64,000 nucleotides of DNA. Origin: Candidatus Pelagibacter sp. GTDB lineage: Bacteria > Pseudomonadota > Alphaproteobacteria > Pelagibacterales > Pelagibacteraceae. The stretch spans positions 40,209-104,208 of the forward strand of contig NZ_JBNGZQ010000001.1 of assembly GCF_052049575.1 (NCBI RefSeq), given 5' to 3'. This document shows positions 2,726-37,414 of this stretch, one piece after another (positions within the stretch are counted from its first letter, which is position 1; each line of letters starts with the position of its first letter). The position numbers and the translations under genes were made by a program. Below the pieces are notes generated by a model. It was not told where the DNA came from, ran no database searches, and worked only from the letters and a program-made list of their open reading frames with translations.

Positions 2726-3126
2726 TAACAGCTGACAAGCCAAATATCGTAAACAGGATGATCGAAAGGTGCTATAGAGGGGCTTGATGAGAACATCCAA
2801 CCATTAAAAACAAAAACGTTATTTCTATCTTTTTTTGTTAAATCTCTTACTTGGATATATGCCTTAACCTCAGGATTATCATCAAATTTAGAGTCAGTAC
2901 ATTTAATACTTTTTATAGCTAAATCTTTATAAATAAATTCCTCATTATTGACTAATTTTATCAACTCATTTTTGGAACTAATCTTATCTAATATTTTTAT
3001 ATCAGTTTTATTTCCATCAAGGTTGATTTCAGCACTAGTCTTAAGTGTTATAAATATAAAAAATAAATATATAAATAAAAATAAATTTAGTTTATTTCCA
3101 ACTTTTATATTTTTTTTCAGTTGCAT
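2722..3126 (-). CDS. DUF2155-family exported protein
   Basis: LDKIS motif and C-terminal FNGWMFSSSPSIAPFDHPVYDIWLVSC, typical of DUF2155; hydrophobic N-terminus; usual position next to accC and NDUFA12. Confidence 0.8.
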   Translation of the reverse strand: MQLKKNIKVGNKLNLFLFIYLFFIFITLKTSAEINLDGNKTDIKILDKISSKNELIKLVNNEEFIYKDLAIKSIKCTDSKFDDNPEVKAYIQVRDLTKKDRNNVFVFNGWMFSSSPSIAPFDHPVYDIWLVSCY

Positions 3127-3451
3127 TTTTATTGTTCTTATTTGGATAGTAAGCTGAGTCAGTACCGGTCAAATTAGCTTGGTGAGGTTTTTGCCAATTA
3201 TGCTTCTCTAATTTATGAATATTTTCAATTTTATTTGGCATAAAATGAATCCAAGAATACCATTCAACTGGAATTTTTGATGCATCAATTTCATTCGCAT
3301 AAATTACCCACCTTTTTCCTTTTTTGCTTTGATAATATTTATTCCCATGTTCATCTGATCCGATCAATTTACCAAATAATATAGTTTTGATCCTAGTACC
3401 AATTGTATCTCGATTCCACCAGGTGAAAATTTTTTTTAAGAATGTCAACAT
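3092..3451 (-). CDS. NADH:ubiquinone oxidoreductase accessory subunit, NDUFA12 (17.2 kDa) family
   Basis: FTWWN, G.DEHGNKYY, RWVIY...DASKIPVEWYSWIH, W.KPHQANLTGT..AY.P motifs. Confidence 0.9.
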   Translation of the reverse strand: MLTFLKKIFTWWNRDTIGTRIKTILFGKLIGSDEHGNKYYQSKKGKRWVIYANEIDASKIPVEWYSWIHFMPNKIENIHKLEKHNWQKPHQANLTGTDSAYYPNKNNKNATEKKYKSWK

Positions 3452-3564
3452 GTAAAATTTAATAATTTCAATTTTAAATTGTATAATTTAAATTAGACTA
3501 AAATGTGTAAATGTATATAAGTAAAAAGATTCAAATTTCAAATTTAATTTAAGGATTATTAAAA

Positions 3565-4389
3565 ATGGCAAAATATCTTGTAGAAACTTATTATACATGC
3601 ACTTTTAAGGTAAATCATTATCTTGATGACATCAATGAAACTGAGCTAAAGAATCTCGAAAAAAGAGACGATGGGAAATTTGAAGTTCTAGACGTAAAAT
3701 TAGACAATCGAAAGACGAAAAGTCTTGATCCTGATAGTAAAAAAGGTGATCAAAATAAAAAAATTGATTTAGTTCCAACTCAAAATGAAAATAAAACTAA
3801 TAGTGTTGAAAAAATAGTTTCTCAATCTTTTGCGAAATCTGAAAATTCTGGAAAAAGATTTAGCATGCCTGATAGAAGGAAAGGATATATTCAAAAAGCA
3901 ACAATTGGTGACCATAAAGTTTATTTACATACTGGAGAGTATGAGGATGGTAAAATTGGAGAAATCTTTATTGATACAAGTAAAGAGGGAGAGCTAGTTA
4001 AAGCTTTAATGAATAATTTTGCTATCGCTGTTTCACTTGGTCTTCAATATGGAGTACCGTTAGACGAGTTTGTAAATGCATTTATAGGAACTAAATTTGA
4101 GCCCTCTGGTAAAGTAAATGGTAATGACAGAATTTTAAGTGCTTCCTCAATTCTGGATTATATATTTAGGGAACTAGCGATCTCATATCTAAACAGAGAA
4201 GATTTAGCACATACTCCCTCAATAGGTAATTTAGATGCCTCATCTGCAGATGAAAAAGGCTCTGATGAACAAAACCAATTACTAAAAATAGTAAAAGATA
4301 TAACGAGTAAAGGATTTGTAAGAAATAATTACAAAAAAAATCTGGTAGATTTATCAGATGTTAAAATTAGTCTTAAAGGTAAAAAATAA
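3565..4389 (+). CDS. Stand-alone protein carrying the C-terminal (TSCPD-type) domain of alphaproteobacterial class II ribonucleotide reductase, without the catalytic barrel
   Basis: Residues ~98-220 ([44 protein letters not shown]...[60 protein letters not shown]) match the NrdJ C-terminal region as I know it. At 274 aa it cannot be a full reductase. Confidence 0.8.
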
Positions 4390-6174
4390 TTATTTTTTAC
4401 TTTTTATAGACAAATTTAACTCTTTTAGTTGATTTTCACTTACACTAGAAGGTGCATTCATCATTAAATCCTGTGCATTTTGATTCATTGGAAACATTGT
4501 AACTTCTCGAATATTTTTTTCATTTGCTAGTAACATAATTATTCTATCAATTCCTGGGGCAATACCTCCATGAGGTGGAGCACCATAACTTAAAGCGTTT
4601 ATCATTCCACTAAATTTTTGATCAACTTCGGATCTAGAGTAACCTGCAACATCAAATAATTTATACATTAGATCTGGTATATGATTTCTAATCGCACCCG
4701 AAGATAATTCTATTCCATTACACACAATATCATATTGATATGCAAGTATATCTAATGGTTTTTCAAAATTAATTTTATTAATATCCCCTTGTGGCATAGA
4801 AAAAGGATTATGACTGAATTTAATTTTATTTGTTTGATTATCTATTTCATACATTGGATAATCTACAATCCAACAGAATGCGAAAACGTTTTCATCGATT
4901 AAACCCAAATCTTTTCCAATTTTATCTCTAGCTGACGCAGTTATCTTTTCTACCTCTTCTGATTTACCACAAGCAAGAAAAATACTGTCACCTACTTTTG
5001 CTTCAGTTTTAATCATTATTTCGTTTAGTGAGTCTTTTGAAAAAAATTTACCTACCGGCCCTTTCGCTGAAATTTCTTTCTCTTTTTCAATAGTAAAGTA
5101 AGCGAGTCCGGAAGCGCCTTGTTCTTTTGCCCATTTATCAATATTATCAAAGAAACTTCGCGGTTTATCTTTTGTATTTTTTGTAACAATGCACCTGACT
5201 TTAGATCCAGATTTAACAAGTTTTTTAAATATTTCAAAAGAAACATCTTCTCTCAAAAAAATTTCAGTAATGTCAGTTATAATTAATGGATTTCTTAAGT
5301 CTGGTTTATCTGTTCCATATTTAATCATTGATTCTTTATATGAGATTCTTGGAAACTGATTAAACAATAATTCTTTATTTGAAAATTTTTTAAATGTATT
5401 AACAAATAACTTCTCTACTACATTAAATACATCTTCTTGATCAACAAAAGACATTTCTAAATCTAATTGATAGAACTCCCCAGGACTTCTATCTGCTCTT
5501 GCATCTTCGTCTCTAAAACAAGGAGCAATCTGAAAATACTTATCAAAGCCAGAGACCATCACTAATTGTTTGAATTGTTGAGGTGCTTGTGGAAGTGCGT
5601 AAAATTTTCCTGGATTTAGTCTGCTCGGTACCAAAAAATCTCTTGCTCCCTCTGGACTTGATGAGGTCAAAATTGGTGTTTGAAATTCTAAAAATCCTAA
5701 TTTATTCATTTCATTTCTAATAAATGAAATTACTTTTGATCTTAATATAATGTTTTCATGAATTTTTTTTCTTCTTAAATCTAAAAAACGATACTTCAAT
5801 CTTATCTCTTCAGCATACTCTCTGTCAGAAAAAACTGGTAAAGGAAGTTCTTTACATTCACCAAGAACTTGAAAATTTTTGATTTCAACCTCAATTTCTC
5901 CAGTTTCAATATCCTTATTAATTGTGTCTTTTGATCTTTCAACTACTTTTCCATTAATTTTAATTACTGTTTCTAATTGTATTTTTTCCAGCTTTTTAAA
6001 ATGAGAATTTTCTTTATCGATAATACACTGTGTTATTCCGTAATTATCTCTTAAATCTATAAATAAAAGATTTCCATGATCTCTTTTTTTATTTATCCAG
6101 CCTGAAAGAATTACTTCATCTCCAACTTTTTCTTTTCTTAATTCGTTGCATTTATGAGTTCTAAATTTGCTCAA
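4390..6174 (-). CDS. aspS: Aspartate--tRNA ligase, probably non-discriminating (Asp/Asn)
   Basis: RDHG.L.FIDLRD, EGARDFLVPSR, FRDEDARADR, GGIAPGIDR. His in RDHG is the residue associated with non-discriminating AspRS. TTG start directly after the hda stop. Confidence 0.97.
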   Translation of the reverse strand: MSKFRTHKCNELRKEKVGDEVILSGWINKKRDHGNLLFIDLRDNYGITQCIIDKENSHFKKLEKIQLETVIKINGKVVERSKDTINKDIETGEIEVEIKNFQVLGECKELPLPVFSDREYAEEIRLKYRFLDLRRKKIHENIILRSKVISFIRNEMNKLGFLEFQTPILTSSSPEGARDFLVPSRLNPGKFYALPQAPQQFKQLVMVSGFDKYFQIAPCFRDEDARADRSPGEFYQLDLEMSFVDQEDVFNVVEKLFVNTFKKFSNKELLFNQFPRISYKESMIKYGTDKPDLRNPLIITDITEIFLREDVSFEIFKKLVKSGSKVRCIVTKNTKDKPRSFFDNIDKWAKEQGASGLAYFTIEKEKEISAKGPVGKFFSKDSLNEIMIKTEAKVGDSIFLACGKSEEVEKITASARDKIGKDLGLIDENVFAFCWIVDYPMYEIDNQTNKIKFSHNPFSMPQGDINKINFEKPLDILAYQYDIVCNGIELSSGAIRNHIPDLMYKLFDVAGYSRSEVDQKFSGMINALSYGAPPHGGIAPGIDRIIMLLANEKNIREVTMFPMNQNAQDLMMNAPSSVSENQLKELNLSIKSKK

Positions 6175-37015: not shown

Positions 37016-37414
37016 ATGGATTTAGAAGTGCTAAGTATTGCTGCAAACACAGATAACAATCGAAATATTGAGAACCGGACACATGTCTCAAAGTTAAAAA
37101 ATTCAGTGTGTGGGGATGAAATGCAAATAGAGCTTATATTAAAAAACGAAAAAATTTTAGACTTTGGTTATCAAGGTAAATCTTGTGTATACTGCCAGGC
37201 ATCAGCCAGTTTATTATCGAAAATTTCTATAAATAACCAAAAAGAAAAAATTAACGATTTATGTGATAAAGCTGAATTATATTTTAATGATGATGTGAAA
37301 ATTATAGATAAAAAATGGAATTCTTTGAAAAAATTGATTAAGAAGAAAAATATCAATAAAAAAGATTGTATATTGTTACCTTTCAAAACTTTAAAAAAGA
37401 TAGTATCAAGTTAA
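37016..37414 (+). CDS. NifU/IscU/SufU-like Fe-S scaffold domain protein
   Basis: NSVCGDEM, G.SCVYCQASAS and K.DCILLP give the three scaffold cysteines. Start placed at ATG 37016 (ORF track: 36983). Confidence 0.78.
   Translation: MDLEVLSIAANTDNNRNIENRTHVSKLKNSVCGDEMQIELILKNEKILDFGYQGKSCVYCQASASLLSKISINNQKEKINDLCDKAELYFNDDVKIIDKKWNSLKKLIKKKNINKKDCILLPFKTLKKIVSS

Follow-up and report, generated by a model that had tools for sequence, protein, structure and literature searches.

In the 64,000-nucleotide stretch of Candidatus Pelagibacter DNA analysed here (the window), positions 3565..4389 of the forward strand hold an open reading frame (ORF) of 274 amino acids (aa), running from an ATG start to the stop codon included in these coordinates, which we describe as a non-catalytic relic of nrdJ. 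The most parsimonious interpretation of the sequence data is that this gene is the remainder, still at its original locus, of a class II (B12-dependent) nrdJ that was truncated in situ in an ancestor of the Pelagibacteraceae. Our favoured reading, which we hold with moderate confidence, is that its product is kept by selection as a binding module without catalytic or redox activity, in which a second function of the NrdJ C-terminal domain lives on: the domain would probably have a job other than making DNA precursors.

Identity and origin of the nrdJ relic

The protein carries the TSCPD domain of Pfam (PF12637) at aa 110-205 with E=8e-13 and 48.9 bits against a cut-off of 22.8, and thus belongs to this family. 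It does not belong to the NrdJ family as defined by PRK07562 (NCBIfam NF005736, alphaproteobacterial NrdJ, 1222 positions): aa 59-263 match model positions 932-1133 with E=6.4e-69, and the score of 232.7 bits lies below the family cut-off of 1737. BLASTP against four full-length Pelagibacterales NrdJ proteins gave 48-53% identity, with the aligned residues running from ~902 or ~960 to ~1123 of ~1200; aa ~98-263 of the relic correspond to NrdJ residues ~960-1123, and the SKGFVR segment is located at aa 248-253. The original prediction, which was made from the sequence alone, had described a 274-aa ORF following the C-terminal domain of NrdJ up to and including this segment, and the matches bear this out. 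It had also noted that the catalytic barrel and the Cys-rich tail are missing and that only one Cys is present, in the N-terminal part, which agrees with our results: there is no match in the relic to PF02867, the ten-stranded catalytic barrel whose N-P-C-x-E finger loop carries the thiyl-radical cysteine, and the alignment to NrdJ begins past the barrel (intact NrdJ relatives exhibit the finger-loop NPCSE at residue ~469), the Cys-rich tail of full-length relatives ('...CPECGSFTLVRNGTCLKCDTCGATTGCS') is not present, and the sole Cys is C12, invariant among orthologues, with aa 13-274 free of cysteine. In NrdJ from the sister family of the Pelagibacteraceae (f2 and f1, respectively, in the following) the tail follows the pattern CxxC...CxxC..C at residues 1167-1193, and the relic ends 11 aa past the equivalent of NrdJ residue ~1123. 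Thus the scarcity of cysteine was rightly observed, but a Cys-free TSCPD region is not peculiar to the remnant: full-length f2 NrdJ likewise contains no Cys between residues ~890 and ~1166.

The TSCPD family is described as exhibiting conserved cysteines, including that of the eponymous T-S-C-P-D motif. In the relic the motif reads TSILD or SSILD and the conserved cysteines of PF12637 are not found; neither are the C-terminal thiol-disulfide cysteines of NrdJb-type proteins. The cluster ligands of IscU-type proteins (three Cys plus Asp/His) are absent as well, since the core has no Cys, and PF01592 (IscU/NifU_N) does not match the relic at E<=1. In one cluster analysed by Burnim et al. (PMC9669993), the four equivalent cysteines occur in 253 of 600 sequences. 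Because it has no Cys pair, the relic cannot reduce nucleotides or shuttle reducing equivalents, and because the core is without cysteines it is neither a redox nor an iron-sulphur (Fe-S) protein.

Alignment of 20 orthologues from five genera divides the protein into modules and linkers (all on the forward strand) that differ in their ratio of non-synonymous to synonymous substitution (dN/dS; within-genus Nei-Gojobori estimates). The N-terminal module (aa 1-52; 3565..3720) is lineage-specific, with a dN/dS of ~0.035 and 57% mean identity between genera, and its invariant residues are Y10, T11, C12, K15, H18, R34, D36, G37, R49, K50 and T51. It is followed by linker 1 (aa 53-97; 3721..3855), which is variable and of low complexity (dN/dS ~0.45; 14% mean identity between genera), and by the TSCPD or 'IscU-like' core (aa 98-218; 3856..4218), which derives from NrdJ residues ~960-1080 and shows a dN/dS of ~0.016 at 87% identity between genera. 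The core exhibits 40 invariant positions, many of them polar or charged: R98, R104, R105, Y108, Q110, K111, K118, E125, E133, D137, K140, E141, Q161, E168, N187, D198 and E203. Linker 2 (aa 219-236; 4219..4272) is again variable and of low complexity (dN/dS ~0.49; 33% identity between genera) and leads to the C-terminal module (aa 237-274; 4273..4386; dN/dS ~0.023; 67% identity between genera). The first half of this last module (...TSKGFVRN..L) is inherited from the S-x-G-F/Y-x-R motif of NrdJ, and its last ~14 aa are SAR11-specific and stand where NrdJ continues into a linker and the Cys-rich zinc finger; a hidden Markov model of the module matches f2 NrdJ and the relic of a further family, f9 (see below), solely over the SxGFxR part.

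Judged by these comparisons, 'new N-terminus', as the original prediction put it, appears to be a fair description of aa 1-52, which are unrelated to NrdJ, to the rest of the genome or to any Pfam family: hhalign against NrdJ gave a probability of 0.4% and hence no detectable homology, no paralogue was found in the host genome, no counterpart at the f2 and f9 loci (best E=0.48) and no family in Pfam. Two candidate derivations of the module were rejected, one from the NrdJ N-terminus, suggested by a 'Y..FK...DG' resemblance, on the grounds of the same hhalign probability, and one from the last barrel strands, suggested by comparison with 'KANALYRDGSK', as the resemblance is lost in other genera.

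The host genome (1.19 Mb, ~29% G+C, two contigs, 99.8% complete) encodes a single ribonucleotide reductase (RNR) barrel, which belongs to a class I NrdA of 646 aa (1006 bits with PRK09102) whose C-terminus reads ...CLSCQ; NrdB (341 aa) is encoded directly downstream, and nrdAB lies on the other contig than the relic. As read from this gene content, SAR11 makes its deoxyribonucleotides with class I NrdAB. The SAR11 NrdA has no ATP cone, its match beginning at position 7 of the PRK09102 model. Only one TSCPD domain was found in the genome, and neither an NrdJ catalytic barrel nor NrdJa was detected in it or in any of the nine f1 family members tested. Comparison of the two families reveals a reductase swap: 9/9 f1 genomes encode NrdA and NrdB and no NrdJ barrel, while 10/10 f2 genomes encode NrdJ and no NrdB. 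At four f2 loci the gene order is aroQ, accB, accC, the DUF2155 and NDUFA12 genes (both pointing away from nrdJ), nrdJ itself (1194-1203 aa) and convergent aspS, which is the same order as in the window. As a full-length nrdJ thus occupies the identical slot in the sister family, truncation in situ is the parsimonious origin of the relic. The NDUFA12 gene also adjoins the f9 relic and a dead NrdJ in genome G357. The suggestion that the B12 enzyme had been deleted whilst this domain was kept in frame is therefore well supported, by the lack of an NrdJ barrel in the genome and by the f2 nrdJ in the same slot.

Retention of the core in SAR11 and beyond

In an order-level sample of 151 genomes, the relic was found as a stand-alone frame of 273-294 aa in 89 of the 91 f1 genomes, spanning five genera at 60-100% identity and with the frame intact. 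Both misses can be traced to the assemblies: the contig of G083 begins within the NDUFA12 gene, and G138 lacks the whole neighbourhood. In f2, the best match to the relic lies inside a frame of ~1200 aa. Genome-contig search recovered close relatives at 80-97% identity, every one of them bearing the label Pelagibacteraceae / Candidatus Pelagibacter (SAR11), and metagenomic clusters at >86% identity number in the thousands, nearly all of them of 273-275 aa. These data indicate strong purifying selection on each of the three modules and a practically universal presence of the relic in the family. Neutral evolution, which had been named as a case that would speak against a functional remnant, is excluded by conservation across five genera and by the difference between modules (dN/dS ~0.02-0.04) and linkers (0.45-0.49). 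Few free-living bacteria are as abundant or as streamlined as SAR11, and a universally retained protein of 274 aa is notable in itself; furthermore, the database names given to it ('ribonucleotide reductase', 'ribonucleoside-diphosphate reductase alpha chain') are misleading and could inflate the B12 dependence inferred in marine metagenome surveys.

In order to place the relic at the level of the class, three scans over 401 alphaproteobacterial genomes were compared. A match to the relic was found in 270 genomes, nearly always within a frame of 1200-1360 aa; NrdJ above the PRK07562 cut-off was present in 248 and a PRK09102-type class I NrdA in 185. At least 17 genomes from eight families, f1 included, exhibit the core but no intact NrdJ, and the forms differ in what else has been kept. 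The f1 (SAR11) form of 274 aa combines the new N-terminal module with the core and the SxGFxR motif and has no zinc finger. Family f9, with small, AT-rich genomes of 1.4-1.6 Mb and class I NrdA only, encodes in two genera and in the same slot a relic of 276-278 aa (L029:9132-9962, +; L152:1399-2235, +; L153:1354-2190, -), in which an unrelated helical N-terminus precedes the core and SKGYIR and in which the zinc-finger tail (CxxC...CxxC) has been retained. The derivatives of f63, f129, f139 and f168 are longer (848-1067 aa) and lack the NPCxE finger loop, and in the five longest of them the barrel is 10-35% and the core 74-80% identical to intact NrdJ. In case of f25 (526-527 aa) and f107 (613 aa), a partial, decayed barrel is joined to a more diverged core without SxGFxR motif or zinc finger. 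The NrdJ-derived frames of these six families (L030:4509-7118; L147:2535-5081, -; L148:2014-4752; L149:1991-5038, -; L150:2141-5344; L155:406-1986; L157:1453-3294, -; L158:1360-2943, -) are probable pseudo-enzymes that databases would call NrdJ. Most of the short matches in the representative search stem from full-length NrdJ cut at a contig end; the short matches were not counted as stand-alone.

The core is the sole element common to all relic and dead NrdJ forms. It is also highly conserved in active enzymes, with 93-100% identity against 79-94% for the barrel among intact f2 enzymes, and the NrdJ-embedded core retains a mean identity of 84% across 36 other lineages. On the strength of these comparisons, at least seven alphaproteobacterial families besides f1 retained the core independently after loss of catalysis. 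This recurrence is our main argument: since the core is kept again and again when catalysis is lost, its function should be independent of catalysis, and since this holds across lineages, SAR11 would have retained an old function rather than invented a new one. It is thus more likely that the function is an old, retained second function of the domain than a SAR11 invention, and of the 'new function' that had been proposed for the relic, the selected non-catalytic role stands whilst the newness does not, as several lineages independently keep the same core.

Two further observations concern the distribution of the domain. Two metagenomic proteins, P0122 (349 aa) and P0131 (294 aa), exhibit two tandem TSCPD-like cores, one of the proteins with and the other without a Cys-rich tail. 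Genome G188 (family f40, 1.1 Mb) matches the NrdJ model with E=2.9e-239 and shows no match to the relic/TSCPD region; its NrdJ may, by this pattern of matches, represent the converse case, an enzyme lacking the IscU-like domain.

Comparison of SAR11 cores with those embedded in NrdJ revealed 67 of 121 core positions with the same residue in both groups at a conservation of 90% or more, and nine positions that are fixed differently. Four of the nine form a patch at aa 143-146 (window 3991-4002), which reads ELVK in SAR11 and AAFR in the NrdJ-embedded cores. The surrounding KEGAAFRS is kept in the three zinc-finger lineages that were scored (f9, f129 and f168; f63, represented by G461, was not scored), and the patch is changed in three of the four lineages without zinc finger. 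Patch 143-146 may therefore be the docking site of the zinc-finger tail, as far as these few lineages allow, and if so, the remaining invariant surface (67/121 positions) would carry the shared function.

Possible functions of the retained domain

Long class II C-termini have been described by Burnim et al. 2022 (PMC9669993) as an IscU-like alpha+beta domain followed by a zinc finger with a redox Cys pair, and the same study states that no role of the IscU-like domain is on record. Crona et al. 2015 (PMC4520616) characterised NrdJb of P. aeruginosa, a separately encoded C-terminal part that uses its C-terminal cysteines for thiol-disulfide exchange and attaches tightly to NrdJa close to the rim of the active site. 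Beyond these two studies, our literature search on TSCPD, the IscU-like domain, 7B9P, Pelagibacter RNR and Caulobacter nrdJ returned no functional data. The 'IscU-like' label rests on the Pfam match together with the published analysis (PMC9669993). An AlphaFold2 (AF2) model computed with 56 diverse sequences shows the core as three beta strands followed by helices, with a predicted local distance difference test score (pLDDT) of 81-93, and the N-terminal module as beta-hairpin, helix and beta-hairpin (pLDDT 64-70); linker 1 is below 50 and linker 2 at ~43, and the arrangement of the modules is of low confidence. A shallow alignment of 20 sequences had given a pLDDT of 42, which was unusable, and the 56-sequence run was used instead. 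Foldseek with the whole model found nothing significant in the PDB, the best IscU entry having E=0.77 and others ~0.8-1, and hhalign of the core against genuine IscU/SufU proteins of these genomes gave probabilities below 1%; the local pairing, itself not significant, aligns the 'GCGSAIASSS' segment of IscU with the beta-hairpin and the first helix of the core. Sequence searches of the PDB with the protein and with the 56-sequence profile were without matches, because 7b9p/7b9q, the only solved alphaproteobacterial-type NrdJ, is a 925-residue construct (residues 1-921) that stops just before the IscU-like domain and zinc finger: the domain retained by SAR11 has no experimental structure. As regards IscU-type proteins elsewhere in the host, the main SufU/IscU-type gene is found at C1:23560-23934, and a weak NifU_N (PF01592) match with E=1.2e-7 lies at window 37028-37240 on the forward strand (C1:77236-77448), in a 143-aa frame.

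Regulatory sites were compared using a consensus for the NrdR box, reportedly the one published by Rodionov and Gelfand in 2005, and the results are only indicative. NrdR itself is encoded in the genome (C2:149499-149957; phmmer, E=3e-33). Upstream of class I nrdAB on contig C2 we found two NrdR-box-like palindromes, ACATAATATTTAGTAT and ACACAACATATAGTTG (L004:5304-5319 and 5335-5350), with 13/16 matches each and exactly 31 bp apart. Of the four f2 genomes scanned upstream of intact nrdJ, G006 and G004 likewise exhibit a tandem pair of NrdR-box-like sites, spaced by 31-32 bp and located at about -160 to -200; G002 has one site at >=12/16 and G054 none. Upstream of the relic, neither the window genome nor any of eight further Pelagibacteraceae genomes (five genera) shows an NrdR-box pair, and in the whole 64-kb window no 16-mer reaches 13/16. 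The relic thus appears, from these scans, to have left the deoxyribonucleotide (dNTP) regulon. Rfam detected no riboswitch or other element near nrdAB or f2 nrdJ.

These results bear on what else the relic could be. An accessory or regulatory subunit of the class I reductase, with the core docking on the NrdA barrel and modulating activity or assembly of an NrdA that has no ATP cone, would be in keeping with the presence of the same short PRK09102-type NrdA in every lineage with a relic or dead NrdJ, with the barrel fold shared by class I and class II alpha subunits and with the tight binding of NrdJb to NrdJa near the active-site rim (PMC4520616). Some RNR is bound to accompany the domain in any genome, however, and PRK09102-type NrdA is often found without any TSCPD domain (for example in G162-G169, G186 and G194-G197), so that NrdA does not need the domain; furthermore, the relic lies outside the nrdAB operon on the other contig, lacks the NrdR boxes that nrdAB has, and NrdA possesses its own C-terminal CLSC tail. 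We regard such a role as unlikely, and the earlier idea of a partner of another reductase is weakened by the same two observations on NrdA genomes without TSCPD and on NrdR boxes. Rather improbable, too, is a small-molecule or metal sensor or carrier, in which an IscU-derived pocket, perhaps completed by C12/H18, binds a metal, a nucleotide or another ligand. Membership of the TSCPD family, which Burnim et al. (PMC9669993) relate to IscU, the many invariant polar residues and the invariance of C12 and H18 in the new module would fit this proposal, but all cysteines that act as TSCPD/IscU cluster ligands are replaced in the relic and in active NrdJ ancestors alike, and genuine NifU_N/SufU-type scaffolds are encoded elsewhere in the genome. 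In addition, the f9, f25 and f107 derivatives are without the SAR11 N-terminal module, which means that C12/H18 cannot belong to the shared function.

A function tied to the divergent NDUFA12-family/DUF2155 pair (accessory or assembly factors of respiratory complex I) rather than to nucleotide metabolism could be read into the divergent NDUFA12-nrdJ/relic arrangement kept in SAR11, f2, f9 and f168; we give it very little credence, as this adjacency may merely be inherited gene order, divergent genes cannot be co-transcribed and TSCPD is not known to be connected to complex I. The two remaining explanations are refuted by the data to the extent that we see next to no room for them. In an ordinary split class II reductase the relic would be NrdJb with NrdJa encoded elsewhere, and NrdJa/NrdJb enzymes in which NrdJb carries this domain do exist (PMC4520616, PMC9669993). 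The separate NrdJ catalytic subunit that would have explained the relic in this way was looked for and excluded in this genome: the sole barrel is that of class I NrdA, accompanied by NrdB, none of NrdJ type occurs here or in the 9/9 family members, and the C-terminal NrdJb cysteines are missing. The gene is a fragment by origin, as a non-functional leftover not yet decayed would be, yet its frame is intact in 89 genomes from five genera, its modules show a dN/dS of ~0.02-0.04 against ~0.47 in the linkers, the genome of 1.19 Mb is highly streamlined and other families have retained the core in parallel.

The catalytic part of ~900 residues is gone, as is the tail with zinc finger and redox cysteines, and the TSCPD domain and the S-K-G-F-x-R helix are left. 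In the binding-module reading that we favour, a class I RNR would have made the B12 enzyme dispensable, whilst its second function would have protected the domain from loss; the new N- and C-terminal modules would replace the barrel as attachment for the core, whose invariant, largely polar surface would carry a function that the NrdJ C-terminal domain already had alongside catalysis. The relic would then work without catalysis as a binding or adaptor module. Several points weigh against this reading. The mechanism is derived from what the protein cannot do, and the many invariant polar and charged core positions would be equally in keeping with a small-molecule site and with a protein interface. 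No such domain was found in 131 of the 401 alphaproteobacterial genomes, hence the function is not universal. The IscU-like fold received no independent support here (Foldseek E=0.77; hhalign <1%), and at a dS of ~1.2, near saturation, the dN/dS values are approximate, though the contrast between modules and linkers is robust.

We lean slightly towards a more general form of this proposal, in which the Cys-free IscU-like domain of NrdJ in Alphaproteobacteria performs a separate cellular function that does not depend on ribonucleotide reduction, redox shuttling or B12, and is kept whenever the enzyme dies: SAR11 would then exhibit one of the two most reduced forms, and 'NrdJ' genes in several other lineages would be pseudo-enzymes kept for this domain. 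SAR11 and the parallel relics represent natural separation-of-function variants, in which the domain is isolated from catalysis and, in SAR11, also from the redox tail, and they make its role directly testable via interactors, ligands and structure. If the proposal is true, the identity of the partner would reveal a link between RNR and another cellular process.

Gene neighbourhood and likeness to known systems

The relic is preceded by a Shine-Dalgarno sequence, AAGGA, at 3551..3555 (+), 9 nt before the ATG by direct reading of the sequence. Within the 113-bp intergenic region a promoter-like TTAATA-17-TATAAT (10/12) is located at 3459..3487 (+), such promoter-like sites being no more frequent in this AT-rich DNA than in shuffled sequence. 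Upstream and divergent lies the NDUFA12-family gene (3092..3451, -; PF05071, E=5.6e-22), followed by the likewise divergent DUF2155 gene (PF09923, E=3e-25) and, beyond these, accC, accB and aroQ. The neighbourhood NDUFA12-DUF2155-accC that had been named for the relic, and for full-length nrdJ in other alphaproteobacteria, is thus found here by Pfam matches and gene order, and in the sister family around nrdJ in the same slot. Downstream, aspS (4390..6174, -) is convergent: the stop codon of the relic (4387-4389) abuts its end at 4390, leaving no base between the two genes, and a terminator-like hairpin was not detected at this junction (window 4387-4392).

In comparison with known systems, the relic is a homologue and, by synteny, a descendant of the C-terminal domain of alphaproteobacterial NrdJ (PMC9669993), with a core identity of 69-71% to NrdJ-embedded cores and with the TSCPD cysteines lost in the NrdJ parents and the relic alike. 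It differs from NrdJ in standing alone, without barrel, zinc finger or Cys pair, in its new N- and C-terminal modules and in lacking NrdR-box control. With IscU/SufU proteins (NifU_N, PF01592) the domain shares a reported structural similarity (PMC9669993), and IscU is among the weak Foldseek matches; in contrast to these proteins, it has no cluster-ligand cysteines and gave no significant sequence or structure match here, and the genome possesses genuine scaffolds of its own. NrdJb of P. aeruginosa (PMC4520616) is, like the relic, a separately encoded protein of ~230-280 aa with the TSCPD/IscU-like domain, but NrdJb has an NrdJa partner and C-terminal redox cysteines and the SAR11 protein has neither. 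The dead and truncated NrdJ derivatives of other families keep the same core in genomes reliant on PRK09102-type NrdA, the f9 form even in the same slot, although they stem from independent events and have unrelated N-termini (a helical one in f9, elsewhere a decayed barrel). The zinc-finger tail and the AAFR patch, both lost in SAR11, are kept by most of these derivatives. The SAR11 form ranks among the two most reduced, and its N-terminal module occurs in none of the others.

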